Sequence record: DRR723986_16857
Direction: 5' to 3' (one strand)
Length of the DNA stretch: 20,000 nt
Part shown: in pieces, positions 345 to 19,342 of the stretch
How the letters are laid out: every line of letters begins with the position of its first letter
Position numbering within the stretch: the first letter of the stretch is position 1
Made by a program: the position numbers and the translations under genes
The notes under the pieces: generated by a model
What the model was told of the DNA's origin: nothing
Databases searched by the model: none
The model's input: only the letters and a program-made list of their open reading frames with translations

Positions 345-1064
345 GTGCTTGTACTATCTCGAAAAGTCGGTGAAGCAATAGCTTTCCCTGCTCTGGATAT
401 CACGGTCAGAATTGCGCAAGTCAATGGAAAGTGCATTTCGCTAGGGATCGATGCGCCGAAAGATGTGCGGGTGCTGAGGCAAGAGCTTGTGCCGCACCTA
501 GAGAAAACCTGCAAGGCGACGCTGGGGAATGTGCCGCACGAGTTGCGAAACAAGCTGAACACGATTGGGCTGGCACTGCATGTTCTGCTGCAACAAATGG
601 AACGCCAATTAGGGGCCGACGAAGCGCTTGTCCAGAGCGCGCTGGATGCATTTCACTCAATCAATGCACTGTTGACCGAAAAGAGCACTCGCCCCAAGAA
701 GGTGCTCTTGGTTGAAGACAATCAAAATGAGTCTAGTCTCCTGGCCGCTCTGTTGCGTCAGGCCGGAATCGACGTCGCTACGATGCGCAGCGGGGAAGCC
801 GCGATAGACTATCTCCGCAGTGAGTCTCAGACGCCCAGCGTTGTTTTGTTAGACATGAAAATGCCAGGCATGGGCGGCGCGAAGACGTTGGAAATCATCC
901 GGAAGAACAAGCGGTTTCGAGATTTGCGGGTCTTCGGAGTTAGCGGAACGTCTGCAGAGGATGCTGGCGTCACCGTCGGGGCCCGTGGTGCGAATCGCTG
1001 GTTCATGAAGCCAGTTGCACCAGACAAGCTGCTTGAATCGATCAATCGAGACATTGCTGCCTAA
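345..1064 (+). CDS. CsrA-domain / DHp(HisKA-like) / receiver (REC) fusion protein, about 239 aa
   Basis: Part of ORF 303..1064. Start reassigned to GTG at 345 because AAGGAG (332-337) lies 7 nt upstream and the N-terminus then reads MLVLSRKVGEAI...LGIDAPKDVRVLRQEL, matching the CsrA pattern MLILTRR.GE.L...IGV.APK.V.VHREE. The middle has HELRNKLNTI (HisKA H-box-like). The C-terminus is a REC domain: VLLVED, LLDMKMPGMGG, VSG, FMKP. Confidence 0.9.
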   Translation: MLVLSRKVGEAIAFPALDITVRIAQVNGKCISLGIDAPKDVRVLRQELVPHLEKTCKATLGNVPHELRNKLNTIGLALHVLLQQMERQLGADEALVQSALDAFHSINALLTEKSTRPKKVLLVEDNQNESSLLAALLRQAGIDVATMRSGEAAIDYLRSESQTPSVVLLDMKMPGMGGAKTLEIIRKNKRFRDLRVFGVSGTSAEDAGVTVGARGANRWFMKPVAPDKLLESINRDIAA

Positions 1065-1097: not shown

Positions 1098-3251
1098 CTA
1101 GGGATGGTGTTGAGGTGTCAAGTGAGAAGGCAGCTCCGAGGCGCTGACGACAACAATCGGCTCTGAAGGGGCACGACTGCTGGTTGCTTCTTCGGCCAGC
1201 AGAAGCTCGACCGTAAAGACAGATCCCCGACCTTCGGCGCCAGCATCCACCCAAATCTTTCCATCGAAGCGTTCAATGATTCTCTTGCAAATGGCCAGGC
1301 CAATTCCGTTTCCGGTGTACTCGCCGCGGCCATGCAATCGTTTGAAGATTCCAAAGACGCGTTGGCGGTAGGCGGGGTCGATACCGATGCCGTTGTCAGC
1401 GAATTTGATTTGCAATCGATCGCCAGCAGCGTGCGACGATATCCGAATTTCGGGCTCGCCAGTGCAATACTTGATGGCGTTGGATATCAGGTTACTGAAC
1501 ACTTGCGTCAGTTGGAATTGATCAGCCATGACGAATGGCAGGTCGTCGAAGTGCACTTTAGCACCCGATGATTCAATCGTTAGTTCAAGATCATTGAGCG
1601 CATCGTCAAGCGAGGCTGCAGCGTTTGTGACGGTCGCCAGATTTCCATCTGATTCGACTCGCGAGAATGCAAGTAGGTCTTGGATGAGTGTTCGCATGCG
1701 TTGGGCGGCGTCGACGATGTGTTCCATAAACATCTGGCCATCTTCCGTAACCTGTCCACGCACCTCCTCACGCAGCAGGTTCGCAAATGAAAGTGTCTTG
1801 CGAAGTGGTTCTTGCAGGTCATGCGATGCGATGTACGCGAACTGGGCAAGTTCTTCATTGCTCCGCTCCAGTTCGGTGTTGGTTCTTCTAAGCTGTTGTT
1901 CCGCTTCGATACGTTCGGAGATATCGACGTGAACACCGATCATGTGAGTTGGCGAACCCTCAGACCATTTCGTGACGCGACCTCTGGAGAGAATCCAGCG
2001 GTAGCTGCCATCTTTGTGTCTCAGACGAAACGTAACGTCGTATACTGGCGTGTTGCCCGAGAAACATTCTTCGACGGCAGTCTGGGTTTCGGTGCGATCG
2101 TCGGGATGCAGTCGTGCTATGAACGTATCGTAGGAGTCGAAAGCCGTCACCTCACCGACTTGGGCGGACAACTCCTCGGAAACGTAGACTGTGTTTTCGA
2201 TCACGTCCCAGCTCCACAGGCCAATGTTCCCGCCGGTAAGTGCTAATTGCAATCGATCCTTAGTAAGCTGCAATTCGTCGCGGGATACTGTGGTTTCCGA
2301 TAGGTCTTGGAGCATGCGGTTGAACGAAAATGCCAACTGCTGAAATTCGACTGGTCCGTTTACTGTTAGTCGCTGCGAAAGGCCCTTCTGATCCTCGATG
2401 CGGCCAATCTGGGCAATCATGCTGGCAAGCGGGTTTGTGATCAGGCGTGAGCAGTAAAGGATTGTGCCGCCCAGGGCTGCGAAGCTGCAGAGGAACATGA
2501 AGACCAGGAACATGTCAGTGCTTCGAAGCGCCGCGAAGGCTGTGGCACGCAATTCTCCTTGCTGCAATACCAGCTCCACGGGCCCTTGCGTGCTCGAATC
2601 GGCGACCAGCCAATCGTGGGCGTTATTCTCGGATGGTCTGTCACTGTAGAGCAACACTCCGTCTTGATAAACCTGCAAGCGTTTTGATTGATCTGAATTG
2701 CGGAACCGATGAAGGAACTCATGCGTATCATATTTGGCCGCCAGTACACCCTCTGTGCTGGCATTGTTCGACGAACGAAACCGAATCGGGCAGGCGACCA
2801 GAATCGATTGACCGGTGACTTCTGCAACGGTGCGCCCCTCAGAGAGGGCATCCATATGTGGACCGATATCAATTGAAACGGTACCAGAGTTCGAAGCCAG
2901 GGGGCGGCCAGCGTAGTCGAACATCGCAATGCTACGAAACGCTGAATTTGGCAGCCGCAGTGTTCGGAAGAATGGAGGCAATTGCGTTCGACGTTGCTCG
3001 CGGCTAATCAACGCTTGGACAATCATATGGTTGTCTGCAAGTGCGCGAACGTAATCGACCAAGTCGTCGAGTTCACGTGCAACTTGGCCAGCAGTGAGCG
3101 CACTGGCCATGCGGATTCTGGTTTCAGCCTGATGCTCAAGGACTCGGGCAGCGAAGAATCGCGAGGCGAGTAACAGTACAAGCAACGCCAGCGCAGTCGC
3201 CGGAACTACTCGACGAAGTATTAGCCCTCCAACGGTTCGCCCTTTGGTCAT
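1098..3251 (-). CDS. Membrane sensor histidine kinase (TM - periplasmic Cache-like - TM - HAMP - PAS/PAC - HisKA - HATPase), with a bacteriophytochrome/COG4251-type transmitter core
   Basis: Two hydrophobic segments. HAMP: ITNPLASM...EFQQLAFSFNRML. PAS_3-like: IGLWSWD...LHPDDR...FRLRHKDGSYRWILSRG...GVHVDISER. H-box: FAYIASHDLQEPLR. N-box: QVFSNLISNAIKY. G1: DNGIGI. F: VFGIFKRL. G2: GNGIGLAIC. The Cache assignment is inference from size and position. Confidence 0.95.
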   Translation of the reverse strand: MTKGRTVGGLILRRVVPATALALLVLLLASRFFAARVLEHQAETRIRMASALTAGQVARELDDLVDYVRALADNHMIVQALISREQRRTQLPPFFRTLRLPNSAFRSIAMFDYAGRPLASNSGTVSIDIGPHMDALSEGRTVAEVTGQSILVACPIRFRSSNNASTEGVLAAKYDTHEFLHRFRNSDQSKRLQVYQDGVLLYSDRPSENNAHDWLVADSSTQGPVELVLQQGELRATAFAALRSTDMFLVFMFLCSFAALGGTILYCSRLITNPLASMIAQIGRIEDQKGLSQRLTVNGPVEFQQLAFSFNRMLQDLSETTVSRDELQLTKDRLQLALTGGNIGLWSWDVIENTVYVSEELSAQVGEVTAFDSYDTFIARLHPDDRTETQTAVEECFSGNTPVYDVTFRLRHKDGSYRWILSRGRVTKWSEGSPTHMIGVHVDISERIEAEQQLRRTNTELERSNEELAQFAYIASHDLQEPLRKTLSFANLLREEVRGQVTEDGQMFMEHIVDAAQRMRTLIQDLLAFSRVESDGNLATVTNAAASLDDALNDLELTIESSGAKVHFDDLPFVMADQFQLTQVFSNLISNAIKYCTGEPEIRISSHAAGDRLQIKFADNGIGIDPAYRQRVFGIFKRLHGRGEYTGNGIGLAICKRIIERFDGKIWVDAGAEGRGSVFTVELLLAEEATSSRAPSEPIVVVSASELPSHLTPQHHP

Positions 3252-4660
3252 TGCACCCGGCCCTCAGTGGCGTTGATTGGCAGTGGGCTCACTATTTGCT
3301 TGGAAGGTACTGCCATTCCGTCGGCTGTAAATCGCATCAGGCGGAAGTCGGTGACGTCTAGGGCATCGTGGTCCGCAGGCGAGAATGGCTGGTGATACTG
3401 CTTGACGACGCCCTCGTGGAATTGAAGCTGCTCCAATGCGAGCCGTACTTCCGGACGATTCAGCGAGTTGCAGTTGCGTACTGCTGCGGCGAGCAATTGC
3501 ACAAGATCGTAGGCGTGTGCTGTACCGAAGGGCGCAGAGATACGTTTAGTCTCTTGAGTGCCGTATTTGTCGCAGTACTGTTGGCCTAGCAGGATGGCTT
3601 CGGGGCGGTCATTTTCAAAGAAAGTAAACGTTTGTAGGAATCGGAGGTCAACTTTCTTAAGTGCATTCTGCGTCGATTCTTGGAATTCGCCGCCGAGGAT
3701 TCCCCAGTGCGAGAAGAACGGAATTCTGTCTTCGTCTGGCAGTGAGGCCATTTCTTTGACCGCGGCCGCCCCTTCGGGAGAGTTTGCGACCAAAATAACA
3801 GCTTCAGTCTCGGCTAGACGCAAGTGTTCAAGCTGGTCGGCAAACGAGCGATGGTTCCAGTCGAACCAGGCGGTTGCTGAAGGCGTTAGTCCGCGTTCCG
3901 CTAACGCGCTGTGGATTGCTTTTTCATTCGATTTTCCCCAACCGGTCTGTTCTAGCAGCATGCCGATTCGATCAAATCCACACTTCACAGCACTATCGAC
4001 CAAGAACTCGCCCGCATATTCATCTCTGACTGAGACGCGAAAGACAAAATTGGGAGAGTAGCCATTGGTGACGACTGGCGTTCCTGCTGCCCAGGGTCCT
4101 AGGTAGATAAGCTCGTGTTGATGAATGACGGGGAGTTCTTCGATGGCAACCGGGGTGTGCACTCCGCCGACAACCGCGAGCGTATTGGGCAGCTCAGCGA
4201 ACATCTCGATGTTATCGATCCCCCGTCGAGGATTCCCGTGGTGGTCACGAACGATGATTTCCACCGGCCGTCCCAGCAGCCCTCCGCGGCGATTGATATC
4301 TTCAACTGCTAATTCAACACCGCGCAAAATCGAACGACCGCCGGTCGCAGAATTGTGTGAAAAATCGGCGTCGACGCCTAAAATAACGCTGCCCGGATCT
4401 GGCCGCTGCGTTGCAGAAGATATGTTGGACTTCGATGGATTTTGCGGTGTGACTTTGGTAAGCCGTACTGCGTGCCGCTTTGGCACCGAAGCAGAAGTTT
4501 GCTCATGCGATCGGAGCTTGTCCTGAGCGAATCTCTGGCCACATCCAGATAGAAGGATCAAGGAGCAGGCAGCGAACAGAAGGCCTGAAAGCGGTGCCAC
4601 TTGCCCAATCAAGTAGCCCGGCACGGGCGTGGACTTGGATGGGAGGTTTGAAGCATTCAT
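3248..4660 (-). CDS. Type 1 periplasmic solute-binding protein (LivJ/Peripla_BP_6-like), probable lipoprotein
   Basis: Family motifs GVELAVEDINRRGGLLGRPVEIIVRD, AVVGGVHT, FVFRVS and AHAYDLVQLLAAAV. A hydrophobic stretch ends in the lipobox-like LSGC (Cys40 at 4541-4543). The stop overlaps the kinase start (ATGA). The exact start is uncertain. Confidence 0.88.
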   Translation of the reverse strand: MNASNLPSKSTPVPGYLIGQVAPLSGLLFAACSLILLSGCGQRFAQDKLRSHEQTSASVPKRHAVRLTKVTPQNPSKSNISSATQRPDPGSVILGVDADFSHNSATGGRSILRGVELAVEDINRRGGLLGRPVEIIVRDHHGNPRRGIDNIEMFAELPNTLAVVGGVHTPVAIEELPVIHQHELIYLGPWAAGTPVVTNGYSPNFVFRVSVRDEYAGEFLVDSAVKCGFDRIGMLLEQTGWGKSNEKAIHSALAERGLTPSATAWFDWNHRSFADQLEHLRLAETEAVILVANSPEGAAAVKEMASLPDEDRIPFFSHWGILGGEFQESTQNALKKVDLRFLQTFTFFENDRPEAILLGQQYCDKYGTQETKRISAPFGTAHAYDLVQLLAAAVRNCNSLNRPEVRLALEQLQFHEGVVKQYHQPFSPADHDALDVTDFRLMRFTADGMAVPSKQIVSPLPINATEGRVQ

Positions 4661-4957
4661 CGTGCAACCAGGCGACTACCGATGCGATCCAGCGATTCGC
4701 TTCCGGAGCACTGCGGCATACCGCTGACTAGGGGGTTGGTAATGTGGCGTGACAGCGAAGGTCGTAGATTTACTCGGAAGCATAGCCCGCCAAATGCCAG
4801 CGAATGCTCAAATTTCCTACCCCCTACGGAGGGATTGCTTCCACATGCGCCGATTTTGTCACCGCGACACAGCTCCAGAGACTGGACTCGTACGGAAAAT
4901 AGTAAAGCACGACGTGTTTGCGTCGGGTGAAGTGATTCGATAGGCGGAAGTGCTGCA

Positions 4958-5371
4958 ATGAGTGATCAGAAGATCTTGATAGTTGATGATGACAGCGCGG
5001 ACCGCTTCCTGCTTCGTCGTCTACTGACGCGAGCTGGAGTCTCGGCTGAATTCGAAGAATGCCTCGACGGTGAACTGGCTCTCGAGTACTTCAGAGCGAC
5101 GGCGGAAGATTCCCTACCAGATCTGGTGCTGCTGGACATCAATATGCCCAGAATGAACGGGATCGAGTTCCTGCAGCACTATGCAGAACTCCTGAAGGAG
5201 TCGCCGCAGCGGAGCGTACCGATCATTGCTATGCTGACTTCTGTATCGCGAAGCGACGAAGAGCAGTGTTTGTCTTACGACTTCGTGGTAGGTCAAGCTA
5301 CGAAACTGCACGAGAAGACAGATTTGCTGGTCGAACAAATCCGCCAAGTCATCGGCGACGAACTTAAGTAG
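4958..5371 (+). CDS. Single-domain response regulator (CheY/Rcp1-like)
   Basis: ILIVDDD, DGELALEY, LPDLVLLDINMPRMNGIEFL and MLTS are present, as is the conserved Lys (ATKL). There is no output domain. Confidence 0.93.
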   Translation: MSDQKILIVDDDSADRFLLRRLLTRAGVSAEFEECLDGELALEYFRATAEDSLPDLVLLDINMPRMNGIEFLQHYAELLKESPQRSVPIIAMLTSVSRSDEEQCLSYDFVVGQATKLHEKTDLLVEQIRQVIGDELK

Positions 5372-5392
5372 CAGTTGAGCCCGAAGGAGCTT

Positions 5393-7186
5393 TTACTGCG
5401 AATCTTTTGCGGCCGCTGGTGGTGTTTCGACTTCGATGTGCAGTTCGTGCAACTGTTTGGTCTCCACGTCGCCAGGCGCACCGGTCATTAGGTCCATCGC
5501 GCGTTGGGTTTTCGGGAATGCGATGCAGTCGCGGATGTTGTCCAGCCCGCCGAAGATCATGACGACACGATCAATTCCCAGGGCAATCCCGCCATGCGGA
5601 GGCGCGCCGTATCGTAGCGCATCAAGCAAGAAACCGAATCGATCTTCGGCCATCTCTGGTGTAATGCCTAGCAAATCAAAAACGGTTTGTTGGGTTTCAG
5701 GATCATGGATCCGAGTCGTCCCACCGCCGGCCTCATAGCCGTTGATCACCAAGTCGTAGGCCTGTGCCCTGCACTTCTCCGGATTCGACGTTAACAACTC
5801 AAGGTCTTGGGGACGCGGTGCAGTGAACGGATGGTGCATCGCAACCCATCGATCCTCTTCTTCGTCCTTTTCGAACATCGGGAACTCAACAACCCAGGAG
5901 AAGTGTAGCTCGTTGGGGTCATAAAGCTTAAGTTCTGCAGCAAGGCGACGCCGTAAGCCATTGAGTCCGCGGCATGTCACTAGCCAAGAATCGGCAAGCA
6001 AGAGTAACAAGTCGCCAGGCTTGGCATCGAACTTCTGCGCGAAGCCGTCTAGAACGGGTTGTTCTAGGTTCTTGCTGATTGGCGACCAGAGCGACCCATC
6101 CTCTTCGACGCGGAACCAAGCAAGTCCTTTGGCTCCGAAGTCATTCTTCATGTACTCGGTTAACTCATCGATGCGTCGACGTGAAAACTCTTCCGCCCGC
6201 CCGTCGACTTTAATGCCGCGGACAAAACCACCGCCGTCGACCGCTCCGCGGAATACGCGAAACTCCGTCTGCTTGGCAAGGTCGCTGCAGTCGACAATTT
6301 CCATGCCGTACCGGAGATCTGGGCAGTCGCTGCCAAACCGACGCATGGCTTCGTCATAAGTCATACGTGGCAAAGGCGTCTGTATGTCCAGGTCTCGCAG
6401 GTCCTTGGCCAGCTTCGTTACCAGACCATCAATCATGCTCATCACATCGTCGGCATCGACGAAGGACATCTCCATGTCCAACTGCGTGAACTCTGGCTGA
6501 CGATCGGCCCGCAGATCTTCGTCTCGGAAGCACCGGGCGACTTGGACATATCGGTCGAAGCCAGCGACCATCAAGATTTGTTTGTACAACTGCGGCGACT
6601 GCGGCAGAGCAAAGAATTGCCCCCAGTGGACGCGGCTGGGCACCAGGTAGTCGCGTGCACCTTCGGGTGTACTTCTGCCAAGGATGGGGGTTTCGACATC
6701 GACGAATTTATTGTCCGCAAAGTAGTCCCGCATCAACTTGATGATCTGACTACGTAGAACCATCGTGGATTGCATCGACTCGCGTCGTAGGTCGATGAAT
6801 CGATGCCGCAGTCGCAGGTCTTCCCCGGGGAGCTCTTCTTGGTTTGGGAAAAACGGCGGCGTCTTGCAACGGTTCAGCAGTTCGACGTTTGTGGCGCGAA
6901 TTTCTATCTCGCCGGTCGGCAGTTTCGAGTTGTCTTTTCCGACCAAGCGGAGGCTCACGACTCCTTCGATTTTTGCAACGTCTTCGCTGCGCAGACGCTT
7001 GGCGACCTCAAGGTTCTCTGCGCCACAGTCGGGATTTACCACGACTTGAGTCTTGCCGTAGCGGTCGCGCAGGTCCAGAAAAATCGTCCCTCCGTGGTCG
7101 CGGGATTTGTCCACCCAACCGCAAAGTGTCACAACTTCATCGACATTGGAGCTGCGGAGTTCACCGCAGGTGTGCGAGCGTAGCAA
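5393..7186 (-). CDS. aspS: Aspartate--tRNA(Asp/Asn) ligase, likely non-discriminating
   Basis: RSHTCGELR, RDHGG, STPEGARDYLVPSR, ALPQSPQLYKQ, motif 2 RCFRDEDLRADRQPEFTQLD, motif 3 GAPPHGGIALGIDR and IAFPKT. TTG start. Confidence 0.98.
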   Translation of the reverse strand: MLRSHTCGELRSSNVDEVVTLCGWVDKSRDHGGTIFLDLRDRYGKTQVVVNPDCGAENLEVAKRLRSEDVAKIEGVVSLRLVGKDNSKLPTGEIEIRATNVELLNRCKTPPFFPNQEELPGEDLRLRHRFIDLRRESMQSTMVLRSQIIKLMRDYFADNKFVDVETPILGRSTPEGARDYLVPSRVHWGQFFALPQSPQLYKQILMVAGFDRYVQVARCFRDEDLRADRQPEFTQLDMEMSFVDADDVMSMIDGLVTKLAKDLRDLDIQTPLPRMTYDEAMRRFGSDCPDLRYGMEIVDCSDLAKQTEFRVFRGAVDGGGFVRGIKVDGRAEEFSRRRIDELTEYMKNDFGAKGLAWFRVEEDGSLWSPISKNLEQPVLDGFAQKFDAKPGDLLLLLADSWLVTCRGLNGLRRRLAAELKLYDPNELHFSWVVEFPMFEKDEEEDRWVAMHHPFTAPRPQDLELLTSNPEKCRAQAYDLVINGYEAGGGTTRIHDPETQQTVFDLLGITPEMAEDRFGFLLDALRYGAPPHGGIALGIDRVVMIFGGLDNIRDCIAFPKTQRAMDLMTGAPGDVETKQLHELHIEVETPPAAAKDSQ

Positions 7187-7394
7187 GGTACTAGTTCCGT
7201 AAATGTTTCGTTCGAGTTTAGCGTGGGGCCGAGGCCTCGCCGGCTCATCGCTTCAGCAATGCACGTCTGAAACGATCGACCGTTGAGCCCTGTTTCGCCC
7301 GGGGCCTGCAAGCAGGTGTGGAAATCGCATTCCTCAGAAAGCTTTGCTCTCGGAGGGGCGAAAGTGAATGGCGTGACGCGAGCAATCGAGCCCA

Positions 7395-7400
7395 ATTCTA
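7395..7400 (-). promoter_or_regulatory. Candidate sigma70-type -10 element (TAGAAT) for aspS
   Basis: ATTCTA on + reads TAGAAT on -, about 210 nt upstream of the aspS start. The only -35 candidate is poor (TAGCCG, 16-nt spacer). Confidence 0.35.
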
Positions 7401-7568
7401 GTGAGACGAGCGCAATCGGCTAGTACTTGTAGCAGAACGCAAGATTGGCCGGACTGGCGGCAGAGCAAGCTTGAAAGCAAGTCTGGTGCAAGGTAACTGC
7501 AGCAGACTGTGTCCGGTTAGCAGAATTTGCAGTGAGCACAATGAATTGGAGACTAGGAAGAACTGAGT

Positions 7569-8864
7569 CTATGAGGACTGCTTCCGCCGTTTAGCATTGA
7601 ATTCCGCTGCGGCAGGAGGAGCTGCACCGGATGCTGGGACGGGTTCTCCCAGTTGCTTCTTTATTTGAAGCTCGAGAGCGTCAATCTCTTTCATCAGTTC
7701 GGACTGCTCGCCCTCGGGGAGCCTGCTTGGCGAAGCTGGCGCAGTTCCAGGCCGAGCTGCCTGCGTGGCGTCGCCTTGTGCAGGAGGGCGACTTTGAGGG
7801 ATTAATTGCTGAGCACCTCCCGGAACCGGCTGGGGACGTACCGCAGCGGGAGTGGAGTGCATTTGCCTACCGGGTGCGGACGCTGAAGTCTGGACGCCAG
7901 CCCCAGTCGAGCCCGTTTGGTGTGCAACGGCTGGAACAACTCGATTCTGCAACAACGCGGCAAATCCGAATAACTCTTGTATAAGCGGCAGTTCTCGCTC
8001 GCTGATCGCTGGCGACCGAGCGGGGCCATGGGCGGTGACGGCGTAGCGAATCAACGGCGGATCTGAGGTGCCATCGGTTTGCAAGTACTTGCGGATCTGC
8101 TCCAGATTTCGCTCGGTGATCTGGGACGCTTTTTCGCCATAAGGGTGGATCAACTGCAAATCTGTCTTGGTGCGGTATCCGTGACAAGCCGCCTGGGAGC
8201 ACCGATTCTTGAGGATTGGCTGAATTGTCCGCGTGAATTCTCGCAAGACTGCTGGAGAGCTCGCTACCGAATCTGCCGTTGCCGAAGCTGGCTGGACGGC
8301 TTCAGAGTCAACTTCTTTCGGTGTTCTTTGGGCTAAGCGTGTTGGTTTAGGCGGTTCAGCGATGCCAAGGAATCTGCGAAAGCCTTCATCGTCGAGCATC
8401 CCTTCCTTCAGCTCGATTCCCAGTTGTCGCACGCTCGGATGCTTGGGGTGCAGGTCGGAGACGATGGTGTAGTGCTCGATGGCTTGTGAAATTAGGCCAT
8501 GCTGGATGCACCATCGCGACATCTGGAAGTGGTCTCCGGCTCCCCAGTGAATCACGCGGTTGGCTCGATAGTCGTAGACTTCCTCGATCGTTTCGCCTAT
8601 GAACAGCACTTGTTGCTTGGGCACCCACAGGCTCGAACGTTCGGCGAGACGCACTTCATAGCGGGCTCCGTCCTCGATGACCTGCCCTTTTTGAACGCGT
8701 TCACTGCCATTGGAGGCACGGACAAGGACAAAGGAGGTGCCCTCGCCCGACATGCCGTTGGCGCGTACCGCGGCTGAATCGCCCGTTGAAGCGGTTTGCG
8801 ATAGCGCAGGAGTGACTGCGGCGGTCCAGAGTAGTAACGCTTTGGCTATGTTTTTGCAGTTCAT
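7569..8864 (-). CDS. Secreted hypothetical protein with a CX4CH putative heme-binding motif and a Pro/Ala/Gln-rich tail
   Basis: 431-aa ORF. Signal-peptide-like N-terminus (MNCKNIAKALLLWTAAVTPALS-Q), a helical TPR-like stretch (HFQMSRWCIQHGLISQAIEHY) and FTRTIQPILKNRCSQAACHG. Confidence 0.8.
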   Translation of the reverse strand: MNCKNIAKALLLWTAAVTPALSQTASTGDSAAVRANGMSGEGTSFVLVRASNGSERVQKGQVIEDGARYEVRLAERSSLWVPKQQVLFIGETIEEVYDYRANRVIHWGAGDHFQMSRWCIQHGLISQAIEHYTIVSDLHPKHPSVRQLGIELKEGMLDDEGFRRFLGIAEPPKPTRLAQRTPKEVDSEAVQPASATADSVASSPAVLREFTRTIQPILKNRCSQAACHGYRTKTDLQLIHPYGEKASQITERNLEQIRKYLQTDGTSDPPLIRYAVTAHGPARSPAISERELPLIQELFGFAALLQNRVVPAVAHQTGSTGAGVQTSASAPGRQMHSTPAAVRPQPVPGGAQQLIPQSRPPAQGDATQAARPGTAPASPSRLPEGEQSELMKEIDALELQIKKQLGEPVPASGAAPPAAAEFNAKRRKQSS

Positions 8865-9055
8865 GGGGCTGACAGTAGGTTCTGTGAGCCTCGTGAGTCA
8901 AGATCAGCCGCTTTGAAGGGCATTTTCGCGATTCCATTGCTTAGGTCGCGATATTAAAGCTCGCCATAGTCAAGTTCCCGCCTAAGCAATGGCGACTGGC
9001 AGCTTCGTGAAGATTCGGCAGGATTGAGCGCGGGAGCGACTAAGGCAAACTAAGA

Positions 9056-9361
9056 ATGACCGATCCAACCTCCAAAGAAGAACTCCGCGTGATTTTCGAA
9101 GGCCGCGTCCAGGGCGTTGGTTTTCGCGCAACCGTGCACGAGCTCGCCGACGAGTTTGACGTCAGCGGATGGGTTGCTAACGCGGGTGACGGCACAGTTC
9201 ACATGACGGCCCAAGGGGCTCCGAAGGAACTTCGGCAGTTCATTGAGCGGATTCTCGAGGTTCGCAGGCGCTACGTGGTGAACCATCGTCAGCAGTGGCA
9301 AAGGGAAACGGTGAAGATGCGAGGCTTCGAAATCCGTCCTGACATCATGAATTGCCGATAA
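9056..9361 (+). CDS. acyP: Acylphosphatase
   Basis: Signature GRVQGVGFR and GWVANAGDGTV (catalytic Arg and Asn). 101 aa. Confidence 0.92.
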   Translation: MTDPTSKEELRVIFEGRVQGVGFRATVHELADEFDVSGWVANAGDGTVHMTAQGAPKELRQFIERILEVRRRYVVNHRQQWQRETVKMRGFEIRPDIMNCR

Positions 9362-9540
9362 TTCAACCGCTTTTCCGGCGGCAGTCGCTACTGAATACTT
9401 TTGGGCATAATCTCGGCAGGAGAGGCAAACTTTCGATGGGATGGCTGCGTACCACTGGGACGTAGATATGCGCTGACGTGGAACTGACAGTGAACCACCG
9501 CTCAGCTTCGTTTGACCCAACCATTTACTGAGTTCCATCG

Positions 9541-11307
9541 ATGGTCCCTACGCTGCTGAGTCTTCCGATTGGTCAAGCTGCACAAGTCAAGCAGTGGTGG
9601 GTTACCGCTTGGCTCACTCCGGTATGGTTCTTGGCCGTCGGCGTGGCGATGGGCCTTGTGATGTTGGCCGCGTTCACCCTGGTCTTCCGTCTGCTATCGT
9701 CTACTCCTCTGGAGAAGCTTTCTCGAGGACCGATGGGGCACGTCGTGGCGGCGATCCTGACGGCCGCAATAACTGGCGGCATTATCGCCTGCCTGCCCGA
9801 AGGTTTCTTCGGAAAGACAGATCTTCAAGAGCCGTTGCTACTCACGATTGCTCTGGCCCTATGCTGCGGGATTATTGGCTGGAGTATCGTCTTCTGCTCT
9901 GGCAAGCAGGCCGCCAACGACTCGATCCGAACGCTCACCGATGGTGCCGCCGGATATCTTGTCACTGCAGCGGGCATCGTGGTCGTCATCGGCGCGGTGA
10001 TCTGGGGCCTCAGCTCTGTTTCCAATCGAAAAATAGTCGAAGAGCCGTTAGCCGCCTTCAGCAGTATTCCAAAGCTGTTTACTACCGGCATTGAAGAGGT
10101 TGTCCTCAAGGTTCCTGCAGCGACCGGCGACGAAGCGAAATTTGAGAAGCAGGAACTCAACATTGATTTCGAGCTTTTGACGGAGCTGGAAATCACCAGT
10201 GATGTCGATGTGCTATTGGCTGACGCCGGTGAGAGCACTCAGCTTAATCGCGTGCCCGTTGATGTGCTTGCCGGCGAATCGATCGTTTGGCGAAACACCC
10301 AGCGTATCGAAGACTTGCCAATTCCGTACGAAGATGGCACGGACCTCTACATTCAGAACAAAGAAATCTACGAAGCGAACGTCACCGTCAGGACTCTAAC
10401 ACGCCCGCCGGTACCGCAGGCGACGTCGTTCTTGCTCACCGCGATCATGGTCACTTTGGTTGGTTTGAGCATTCTCCTGCAGCAAGCAGTAGCACCCCGA
10501 GTATCAGCGGTTGCTCATGCGACGCTCAAAAACGAGCTGGCTCAACCATTGTTCTTGGTTCTGATGTTGCTCGGTCTGGTCGCGATTTTGTTGTTCGAAT
10601 TCTTGTCGTTCAATACTTTTGGCGAAGATATCAAGCTGCTTAAGGATTGTGGAATCACAACAATCATGTTGCTGGCAGCCTTCCAGGGGATTTGGTCTGC
10701 GAGCAGTTCGATCAGCGAAGAGATCGAGGGAAAAACGGCACTGACCGTCTTGAGCAAGCCCATTCACCGCCGCAGCTTCATTATCGGTAAATTCATGGGC
10801 ATCTTTTGGGTGCTATGCCTGATGTTCGTGGTTCTCGGTCTGATCGAGATGTTCGCCGTGGCCTACAAGCCACTTTACGAAGCACGTGAGGCCTCTGAAG
10901 AAGCTCCCGTGTGGCAGCTTTGTCACCTGGAAATGTTCAGTACCGTCCCAGGGCTTCTCATGGCTTTGATGCAAGCTGTCGTGCTGACTGCCATTAGTGT
11001 AGCCCTAGCTACGCGTCTCCCGCAGTTGGCAAACCTTGCCGTATGCTTCGCCATCTACGTGATCGGCAACCTGACAACCTCGCTCGTTAGCAGTACCCAG
11101 GAAGGTTTCGAGATCGTTAAGTTCGTTGCACAATTGGTTGCGACGATCATCCCAATCCTCGAACACTTCTCGATGCAAGCAGCCATTGATGCGGGGAATT
11201 CGATTACGTTCTCGTTGCTGTCCGGTAGCCTGATCTACTGCTTGCTGTACGTCCTGCTGAGCATGTTCCTTGCTCTGTTGATGTTCGAGGATCGGGACCT
11301 AGCGTAG
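9541..11307 (+). CDS. ABC-2-type transporter permease-like membrane protein with an N-terminal extension
   Basis: The C-terminal half has the ABC-2 permease pattern (AVAHATLKNE...ISEEIEGKTALTVLSKPIHRRSFIIGKFMG...LMFEDRDL). The N-terminal half has about 4 TM segments and an acidic soluble domain of about 130 aa. Confidence 0.82.
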   Translation: MVPTLLSLPIGQAAQVKQWWVTAWLTPVWFLAVGVAMGLVMLAAFTLVFRLLSSTPLEKLSRGPMGHVVAAILTAAITGGIIACLPEGFFGKTDLQEPLLLTIALALCCGIIGWSIVFCSGKQAANDSIRTLTDGAAGYLVTAAGIVVVIGAVIWGLSSVSNRKIVEEPLAAFSSIPKLFTTGIEEVVLKVPAATGDEAKFEKQELNIDFELLTELEITSDVDVLLADAGESTQLNRVPVDVLAGESIVWRNTQRIEDLPIPYEDGTDLYIQNKEIYEANVTVRTLTRPPVPQATSFLLTAIMVTLVGLSILLQQAVAPRVSAVAHATLKNELAQPLFLVLMLLGLVAILLFEFLSFNTFGEDIKLLKDCGITTIMLLAAFQGIWSASSSISEEIEGKTALTVLSKPIHRRSFIIGKFMGIFWVLCLMFVVLGLIEMFAVAYKPLYEAREASEEAPVWQLCHLEMFSTVPGLLMALMQAVVLTAISVALATRLPQLANLAVCFAIYVIGNLTTSLVSSTQEGFEIVKFVAQLVATIIPILEHFSMQAAIDAGNSITFSLLSGSLIYCLLYVLLSMFLALLMFEDRDLA

Positions 11308-11785: not shown

Positions 11786-16311
<4,526 letters not shown>

Positions 16312-16932: not shown

Positions 16933-18387
<1,455 letters not shown>

Positions 18388-18432
18388 TTAAATCCTCGAA
18401 TGGATCTTTGCGATAATTGTTTTTTAGTATTC

Positions 18433-18449
18433 GAGCTCTGCGAGAGCTC
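18433..18449 (-). other. Stem-loop in the atpG-atpD spacer (possible mRNA-stabilising or processing hairpin)
   Basis: GAGCTCT-gcg-AGAGCTC inverted repeat. On the transcribed (-) strand it is followed by an A-rich tract rather than a U-rich one, so it is not a canonical terminator for the operon. Confidence 0.4.
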
Positions 18450-18463
18450 AATGAAAGGTGGGC

Positions 18464-19342
18464 TTAGCCTTCGAGGGCTTCTACGCCACCGATAATTTCC
18501 ATGATTTCCTGAGTGATCTTCGATTGCCGTGCACGGTTGAACGTCATCGACAATTGCTTGATGATCTCGCCGGCGTTCTCGGTCGCACTCTTCATTGCGA
18601 TCATTCGAGCGATTTGTTCGCTAACCGCTGCATCGAGGAAACACTTGAACAGCTTCACGCGGAAGCTGGCTGGCACGACCTCTTCGAGAATGGATTCTGC
18701 CGAAGGCAGGAACTCAAAGTCTTGGTTCGTTTCGCTAGCTTCTGCTTCAGCATCGGCAGTCGGGCTCGAGAACGGCAATAGCGTCTCGACGACTGCTTCC
18801 TGACGAGCGGCAGAAATGAAGCGAGTGAACGCGACATCCAAGCGATCAATTTTGCCAGAGATGAAATCTTCCATCAGCCGATCGGCGATAATGGCGACTT
18901 CTTCAAAAGCGGGTTCGTCTTCAAAATTTGTGTAGGTCTGATCGATCGGAACGTTGCGGAACTTCATTGCTGAAATACCGCGTTTTCCACTGATTTCAAA
19001 GTTGACGTTGCTGCTGCCAGACAACTCGTTGAGTCGAATCGTAGCGGCGCGTGTGACAGAGCCGTTGTAGCCACCGCACAGCCCCCGGTTGCTGGTCAGC
19101 ATAAGAACGGTTGCATTCTCGACATTGGGGCGTTCTGCGAGCAGTGGGTGTGAAACCTCAAGCCCCGCAGCAGCGAGATCGCGAACAATCTGTGTGATGC
19201 GTTCCGTGTAATCATTCGCCGCAGCAGCCCGATCCATCGCCTTCTTGAAGCGAGCGGTCGCAATCAGCTCCATCGTTCGCGTAATCTTTCGAATGTTGCG
19301 AACGCTCTTGCGGCGTTTGTCGAGTTCTCTGATGTTGGCCAT
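18464..19342 (-). CDS. atpG: F1 ATP synthase gamma subunit
   Basis: KITRTMELIA, TSNRGLCGGYN, SEQIARMIAMKSATENA and NRARQSKITQEIMEIIGG. Confidence 0.98.
   Translation of the reverse strand: MANIRELDKRRKSVRNIRKITRTMELIATARFKKAMDRAAAANDYTERITQIVRDLAAAGLEVSHPLLAERPNVENATVLMLTSNRGLCGGYNGSVTRAATIRLNELSGSSNVNFEISGKRGISAMKFRNVPIDQTYTNFEDEPAFEEVAIIADRLMEDFISGKIDRLDVAFTRFISAARQEAVVETLLPFSSPTADAEAEASETNQDFEFLPSAESILEEVVPASFRVKLFKCFLDAAVSEQIARMIAMKSATENAGEIIKQLSMTFNRARQSKITQEIMEIIGGVEALEG

Follow-up and report, generated by a model that had tools for sequence, protein, structure and literature searches.

Can a CsrA-type regulator of translation be controlled directly, in cis, by phosphorylation? To our knowledge, control of the CsrA/Rsm proteins characterised so far is always indirect, through decoy RNAs or FliW, and two-component signals reach these proteins only via transcription of the decoy RNAs; nothing in the literature that we searched contradicted this generalisation. 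The question is raised by a gene at positions 345-1064 (+ strand, stop codon included) of the 20,000-nt stretch of DNA DRR723986_16857, which was analysed over its whole length and is called the window below. A reading made from the sequence only had described the product of this gene as a CsrA-like domain joined to a receiver (REC) domain. The results presented here show that the gene is real and has a real three-module architecture, and they make direct phospho-control of the CsrA domain plausible. As judged from its sequence, the protein probably places mRNAs under the direct control of a sensor kinase. On balance we lean towards the reading that it is a phosphorylation-controlled CsrA-type translational regulator, in which a DHp-like hairpin would dimerise and join in the phosphoryl chemistry, and for which an adjacent kinase and its binding protein would provide the input.

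A gene for a three-module protein

The open frame spans positions 303-1064 of the + strand. Translation from the GTG codon at position 345 yields MLVLSRK, the N-terminus common to the members of the family, which indicates that this GTG is the likely start codon and that the gene encodes a protein of 239 aa. A ribosome-binding site that can be read off the sequence, AAAGGAG (331-337, + strand), is located 7 nt 5' of this codon. A weak sigma-70-like promoter match, TTGACC-18-GAAAAT (257-286, + strand), is present 59 nt 5' of the start codon; it is a match to the consensus only, and one such site was found against 0.5 expected from shuffled sequences. The 344-nt leader contains four ANGGA motifs, and the window as a whole contains 122 against an expected 144 +/- 12, that is, without enrichment. 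Folding of region 290-365 (z = -0.30) gave no special structure that would present the Shine-Dalgarno GGA. No known RNA family was matched when the whole window was searched with Rfam, from which we conclude that it contains no recognisable CsrB/RsmZ-like sponge.

The order of the modules in the protein is CsrA domain, helical hairpin with a conserved His-x-x-Arg-Asn, and receiver. The hmmscan check that the sequence-only reading had proposed placed both named domains above their Pfam cut-offs: PF02599 matched residues 1-50 (55.6 bits, cut-off 27, E 5.2e-15) and PF00072 (Response_reg) matched residues 120-233 (72.9 bits, cut-off 30.2, E 2.9e-20), so that the CsrA-like domain and the REC domain, claimed at about 699-1061, are both borne out. 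The claim that one is simply joined to the other did not hold, because a conserved H-box hairpin (residues 65-112) intervenes. The same succession of CsrA strands, a helix (residues 46-60), hairpin and receiver is predicted by an AlphaFold2 model of the monomer, which was based on a 37-row alignment and has a mean pLDDT of 82.5.

A large family of planctomycete proteins

A protein search yielded 1027 matches at E<=1e-3, with a best identity of 66%. The best 120 of these 1027 all contain PF00072 as well as PF02599, are 239-310 aa long and, wherever a source is named, come from planctomycetes (Planctomycetaceae, Pirellulaceae, Thermoguttaceae, Isosphaera, Stieleria). Full-length relatives are encoded at no fewer than 21 loci on contigs sampled as one genome per species; 20 of the 21 loci listed name Planctomycetota lineages and the other one just 'bacterium'. 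When residues 1-118 were used as query, 99 representatives (50% clustering) were retrieved at E<=1e-10. Five two-domain clusters were present among the matches in a protein atlas, the top three having 69, 62 and 109 members and Planctomycetota as the commonest phylum, and the relatives detected in a metagenome scan showed at best 37% identity. The family is large, with hundreds of members, and its lineage-named records are all Planctomycetota. Because of this size, biochemical work on a single member would serve to annotate hundreds of genes. The sequence-only reading had described such fusions as planctomycete database entries lacking experimental work; the spread observed agrees with this description, and no experimental study of any CsrA-receiver fusion was found in the literature searched, which has subscription journals largely outside its scope.

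Five planctomycete genomes (G001-G005, reached via L008, L001, L019, L004 and L021) contain between 8 and 22 CsrA-domain matches each. The nine matches in the genome of Stieleria marina, a cultured species whose strain K23_9 provides the copy at L008, consist of five short frames (76-146 aa) and four frames of 273-319 aa. The occurrence of short and long CsrA-domain frames in one genome indicates that fused copies coexist with stand-alone CsrAs. Some of the expanded CsrA paralogues of G001-G005 are in frames of 197-450 aa and may be other fusions.

Several relatives depart from the common architecture. Three of six short relatives (135-162 aa) run into the receiver and then stop, and the other three may be fragments or genuine short forms. 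P0131, P0188 and P0205 (135-147 aa) comprise the CsrA domain and the hairpin region but lack a receiver, and may represent fragments, frameshifts or a genuine two-module form. Locus L019 contains tandem paralogues of the family (4652-5470 and 5992-6774), of which the upstream copy has Gln for the hairpin His. At L021 the family match is split in two (6001-6264 and 6399-6740) with an offset that is not a multiple of three, and this may reflect a frameshift or a pseudogene.

A conserved helical hairpin between the two domains

The intervening module (residues 65-112; 537-680, + strand) was delineated from the AlphaFold2 model, profile searches and conservation, and has the features of a kinase-less, DHp-like helical hairpin with an H-box-like motif, H65-E-L-R-N69, in which His65 is encoded at 537-539 and Asn69 at 549-551. 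The predicted helices comprise residues 65-86 and 93-112 (pLDDT about 66-74). In a first alignment, of the query and 36 of the best 120 of the 1027 homologues, His65 and Asn69 are the invariant columns between the domains and form part of a motif H-x-[LF]-R-N-[RKQ]-[LI]-[NH]. Conservation was also scored in 201 distinct full-length proteins of 225-330 aa having the family start, taken from the search with the whole protein and from that with residues 1-118, a set that was collected by similarity to the motif-bearing query and is biased towards the motif. His65 is present in 197 of these, Asn69 in 195 and Arg68 in 180, as compared with 195 for the phospho-acceptor Asp170. An acidic residue follows the His (His+1) in only 83 of the 201 members, the 195 Asn being at His+4. 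Of the window protein and 21 sequences from representative genomes, 20 of 22 have the His and 16 of 22 the Asn, the exceptions being the most divergent copies; those without the His are L018 and one L019 copy.

The hairpin was compared with known domains in several ways. Pfam HisKA (PF00512) matched residues 60-109 of the window protein with 14.3 bits (E 0.043), which does not reach the curated cut-off of 26.9; eight of the 37 aligned members gave E<=0.1 (lowest value 1.7e-5), and one of the best 120 of the 1027 homologues carries a precomputed HisKA annotation. A profile built from 88 true kinase DHp domains from related loci, with family members left out, matched 15 of 23 family ORFs (per-sequence E<0.01), and the His of these ORFs falls on the H-box His. 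The match of this profile to the window protein (15.8 bits, E 7e-7) spans both helices and aligns His65 with the H-box His. A profile made from 22 hairpin sequences found no kinase among solved structures, its best match (E 0.022) being a de novo helical protein, and nothing was obtained by tblastn of residues 40-118 against hybrid-kinase loci. In the Pfam scan of 37 members, two weakly matched TPR_19 in place of HisKA and one gave a weak SPOB_a match (E 0.058). The window protein itself gave no Pfam match to Hpt (PF01627) at E<=1 and none to HATPase_c, and its 239 aa leave no room for an ATPase domain. The sequence of the hairpin is weakly similar to that of a HisKA dimerisation/phosphotransfer domain deprived of its ATPase domain; we refer to it as DHp-like and stop short of assigning it to HisKA.

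A study of HisKA kinases (PMC3510030) reports a division of labour: the acid at His+1 is required for kinase but not for phosphatase activity, and the reverse holds for the Thr/Asn at His+4. The pattern observed in the family, in which the kinase residue is lost and the phosphatase residue is kept, fits a DHp domain lacking an ATPase domain.

These results bear on a simpler reading, that of a plain two-component switch in which a kinase phosphorylates Asp170 directly and the hairpin is a dimerising spacer, its His and Asn being structural only. The HisKA score below cut-off, the solved structures without a kinase match and the two TPR_19 matches all speak for it. On the other side, His65 and Asn69 are kept as strongly as the phospho-Asp, and they stand in exact H-box register against true DHp domains.

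Two further observations concern hairpin-like sequences elsewhere. A receiver cluster of 63 proteins (212-aa representative, rank 9 in the protein atlas), 32% of which have HisKA and in which Verrucomicrobiota is the commonest phylum, may contain a kinase-less hairpin-receiver unit without CsrA. The 16 repeats matching the hairpin in P0247, a protein of 2451 aa, were rejected as spurious, since P0247 is an unrelated repetitive coiled-coil protein.

Sensor kinases in the neighbourhood

The gene is convergent with that of a sensor histidine kinase of 717 aa (1098-3251, - strand), the stop codons of the two genes being 33 nt apart. Domain matches give this kinase the organisation dCache-HAMP-PAS-HisKA-HATPase, with no receiver, and it is the likely partner of the CsrA-receiver protein. 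Its start is overlapped by 4 nt by the stop of a gene encoding a periplasmic binding protein (3248-4660, - strand), assigned by a Peripla_BP_6 domain match and having, in its translation, a lipoprotein-like signal (…LLSGC). The Peripla_BP_6 protein is the probable ligand-binding partner of the kinase, and region 1098-4660 (- strand) looks like a binding-protein-dependent sensor kinase operon. Pfam revealed no other receiver protein and no evident downstream regulator in the 20,000-nt window. Elsewhere in the window two ORFs of 431 and 822 aa (7569-8864 and 13843-16311, both - strand) have no Pfam match at E<=0.001; the housekeeping genes around them are aspS (5393-7186), ligA (11801-13846) and those for the ATP synthase beta and gamma subunits (16933-19342).

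When the window kinase was used as query, a kinase was detected within 6 kb in 12 of the 21 listed related loci. In nine of the 21 a kinase is encoded immediately downstream or one gene further on, on either strand, and in the other 12 no kinase is directly adjacent. Eight of the nine adjacent kinases are hybrid and end in a receiver, a count that stands without a baseline for the share of hybrids among planctomycete kinases. Their organisation is PAS-HisKA-HATPase-REC at L001 and L004, DUF4118-HisKA-HATPase-REC at L013, HATPase-REC at L012 and CheB-CheR-PAS-HisKA-HATPase-REC at L007, L011 and L016, and the hybrid kinase at L008 has two receivers. The ninth locus, L018, combines a kinase without a receiver with a family member without the hairpin His. 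The CheB-CheR-PAS-HisKA-HATPase(-REC) kinases are giant fusions directly next to the family members, encoded at 6849-10835 (- strand) of L007, 6824-10960 (- strand) of L011, 7044-11078 (- strand) of L016 and 7517-10804 (+ strand) of L018. At other loci the neighbouring genes are unrelated (PSCyt2/PSD1, PQQ_2, UvrD, a sigma-54 activator, a sulfatase, PNP_UDP_1, or genes without a Pfam match).

Hybrid kinases need a His-phosphotransfer step, and this makes the conserved His hairpin a natural candidate. An Hpt domain was absent from all ten small neighbouring ORFs that were tested. Hpt genes are present in four of the five genomes, none of them near the L001 or L008 loci, and G003 (the L019 genome) is without any match. 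At the window locus the kinase is not hybrid, so that a His relay step is not needed there, which agrees with the plain switch described above; the hybrid nature of eight of the nine adjacent kinases of relatives argues against it. Taking the two kinds of evidence together, we regard a hairpin that is merely a spacer as unlikely.

The receiver and the linker

The receiver comprises residues 119-239 (699-1061, + strand). As the sequence-only reading had stated, its active site is intact: the acidic pair Glu124-Asp125 is encoded at 714-719, the phospho-acceptor Asp170 at 852-854 (gac), Ser200 at 942-944 and Lys222-Pro223 at 1008-1013. In the 201 members D125 is kept in 197, S/T200, like D170, in 195, K222 in 194 and W219 in 198. 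A Foldseek search with the whole model found receivers only, with top TM(target) values of 0.85-0.90, and the pLDDT of this domain is 93-96. The model contains no helix between the strands formed by residues 195-200 and 218-221, a region predicted with a pLDDT of about 95. In place of helix alpha4 the prediction thus has a conserved loop rich in Gly (G201, G212, G215) that leads into W219-F220-x-K222-P223. Such a loss of alpha4 would change the face through which receivers usually act on their outputs.

The linker between CsrA domain and hairpin (residues 51-64; 495-536, + strand) was defined from the alignment and the AlphaFold2 model, and forms in part the C-terminal helix of the CsrA domain (the predicted helix 46-60). 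It is of variable length, with insertions of up to about 60 residues in relatives, and has a pLDDT of 53-62. This variability suggests tethering or occlusion and argues against rigid allosteric coupling.

The best named NCBIfam matches of the receiver include the receivers of the hybrid kinases BarA and LuxQ. Together with a domain order that resembles a hybrid kinase minus its ATPase domain, and with a number of CsrA-domain genes per genome such that stand-alone CsrAs could cover classical regulation, this would suit a reading in which RNA is the input. The CsrA domain would then be a sensor, and binding of RNA would gate phosphotransfer or phosphatase activity of the hairpin, directed at the receiver of the same protein or at others, and the protein would not be a regulator of mRNA. 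If this were true, the RNA pool of the cell would feed a phosphorelay directly, and RNA would be a ligand of a two-component protein. We consider this very improbable: the linker, variable and predicted with low confidence, does not resemble the rigid helices that connect the domains of sensor kinases, the window contains no evident downstream regulator, and no longer family forms having an ATPase domain were found, the last point being weak evidence.

The CsrA domain

In our preferred reading the CsrA domain (residues 1-50; 345-494, + strand) is the output of the protein and would bind RNA. Both elements named by the sequence-only reading, the MLVLSRK strand and the Arg of VLRQEL (Arg45, encoded by agg at 477-479), are present, and L2, L4, R6, K7, R45 and E47 are kept. 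PF02599 was matched by all 37 aligned family members. The NCBIfam CsrA equivalog models scored 50.3 bits, below their cut-off of 73, which indicates that the protein has a CsrA domain but is not orthologous to canonical CsrA. Residues 1-56 align from end to end with CsrA/RsmE chains of known structure (2jpp, E 5e-9; 1t3o, 7yr6, 1vpz and 1y00), an agreement in sequence that is far beyond chance and that contains a single gap, caused by one extra residue in the beta1-beta2 loop (Phe14-Pro15).

The residues of strands beta1 and beta5 that contact RNA, which we take to be L2, L4, R6, R44 and E46 in E. coli numbering, are nearly invariant in the family: L2, R6 and R45 (the equivalent of E. coli R44) are present in 201 of 201 members, E47 in 200 and L4 in 198. 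The His of the VHREE motif is replaced by Leu in the window protein and in 159 of the 201 members. In known CsrA proteins strand beta1, at the N-terminus, carries RNA-contact residues, which accounts for the fusion being C-terminal with the receiver last. In the predicted monomer beta1 and beta5 are unpaired, as expected of a swapped dimer. Predictions of the homodimer fell on either side of the mark of 0.42 (0.45, 0.26 and 0.36) and weigh neither for nor against dimerisation.

Least probable of all is that the CsrA-like domain no longer binds RNA and is a dimerisation or protein-binding module of an ordinary receiver protein: the replaced VHREE His, the extra family residue in the first loop and the lower CsrA-model scores of fused as compared with stand-alone copies in the same genomes (about 52-85 vs about 56-95 bits, sorted by open-frame length) point that way, but a mere dimerisation role would not require the near-invariance of the RNA-contact residues. 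The near-total conservation of RNA-binding and receiver active-site residues suggests purifying selection on both functions.

A model for phosphorylation control of RNA binding

In the model that we favour, the protein would be the last regulator in a two-component pathway or phosphorelay, with a CsrA-type RNA-binding domain as its output. CsrA domains and hairpins would both dimerise, and the resulting dimer would bind GGA-type sites in mRNA leaders. Phosphorylation of Asp170 would change the availability of the RNA-binding faces, and with it the translation or stability of target mRNAs. The hairpin could act as a His acceptor (H2) of the Spo0B/ChpT type, passing phosphate from the receiver of a hybrid kinase to Asp170, or else as a built-in phosphatase for Asp170. 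Input at the window locus would come from the adjacent kinase, which is not hybrid, and from the periplasmic binding lipoprotein co-transcribed with it.

Control of the CsrA domain by phosphorylation in cis fits the conservation of residues and the presence of the adjacent kinase. We regard a plain kinase-to-Asp switch and a pathway that includes a His relay step or a built-in phosphatase as equally likely, because the H-box hairpin is conserved and the adjacent kinases of relatives are mostly hybrid. If the model is true, CsrA domain, receiver and His-bearing helix in one polypeptide would constitute the most direct route known by which an external signal reaches translation, and planctomycetes, with their 8-22 CsrA-domain genes per genome, would gain several signal-specific post-transcriptional switches.

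Comparison with known systems

The novelty of the architecture had been overrated in the sequence-only reading. A 2007 paper (PMC2222644) that cites the 2006 response-regulator classification (Galperin, J Bacteriol 188:4169) lists response regulators whose output domain is CsrA, and the family has hundreds of members. The window gene, with its combination of CsrA and REC, is a new member of this known, uncharacterised class, the architecture of which has been catalogued for about twenty years. The citing passage of PMC2222644 names the two domains only, without a His hairpin, an altered alpha4 or a link to hybrid kinases. What the present analysis adds is the pattern of a lost kinase residue and a kept phosphatase residue in the hairpin, the predicted loss of alpha4 and the count of adjacent hybrid kinases. 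A 2026 survey of >20,000 CsrA homologues (PMC13443453) reports a high prevalence in Planctomycetota; the term 'response regulator' is absent from its text and 'receiver' is used solely for ROC curves. A 2025 review (PMC12471899) includes E. coli CsrA as an 'orphan RR' and contains no data on fusions.

With the CsrA/RsmA/RsmE proteins (PF02599) the window protein shares a CsrA domain at the very N-terminus, in which L2, L4, R6, K/R7, R45 and E47 are kept. Those are stand-alone proteins of 60-70 aa, whereas the window protein is extended C-terminally by the His hairpin and the receiver, and it differs within the domain by the additional Phe14-Pro15 loop residue and the Leu in place of the VHREE His. 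The ANTAR response regulators (AmiR, NasR and EutV type) are likewise receiver-controlled RNA-binding regulators, a parallel drawn in the sequence-only reading and supported at the level of the class by PMC2222644 and PMC12471899, but they have a different RNA-binding fold and act by transcription antitermination and not by binding to ribosome-binding sites; Pfam gave no ANTAR match in the window protein.

Spo0B and ChpT have a kinase-like His hairpin without a working ATPase domain, dimerise into a four-helix bundle and carry phosphate from one receiver to another. The hairpin of the window protein is similarly His-bearing, kinase-like and without an ATPase domain, and would likewise build such a bundle and have a putative role in phosphotransfer. 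It differs in that the receiver presumed to accept its phosphate and an output domain belong to the same protein, and its sequence is nearer to HisKA than to Spo0B. Hybrid kinases (HisKA-HATPase-REC, e.g. BarA/GacS) resemble the window protein in having an H-E-L-R-N H-box and a DHp domain followed by a receiver; in contrast to these, the window protein lacks the ATPase domain and so would not autophosphorylate, and the acid at His+1 is kept in a minority of its family, as given above. BarA/GacS control CsrA/Rsm indirectly, CsrA being several steps downstream of the kinase, whereas in the window protein the CsrA domain is part of the same polypeptide.
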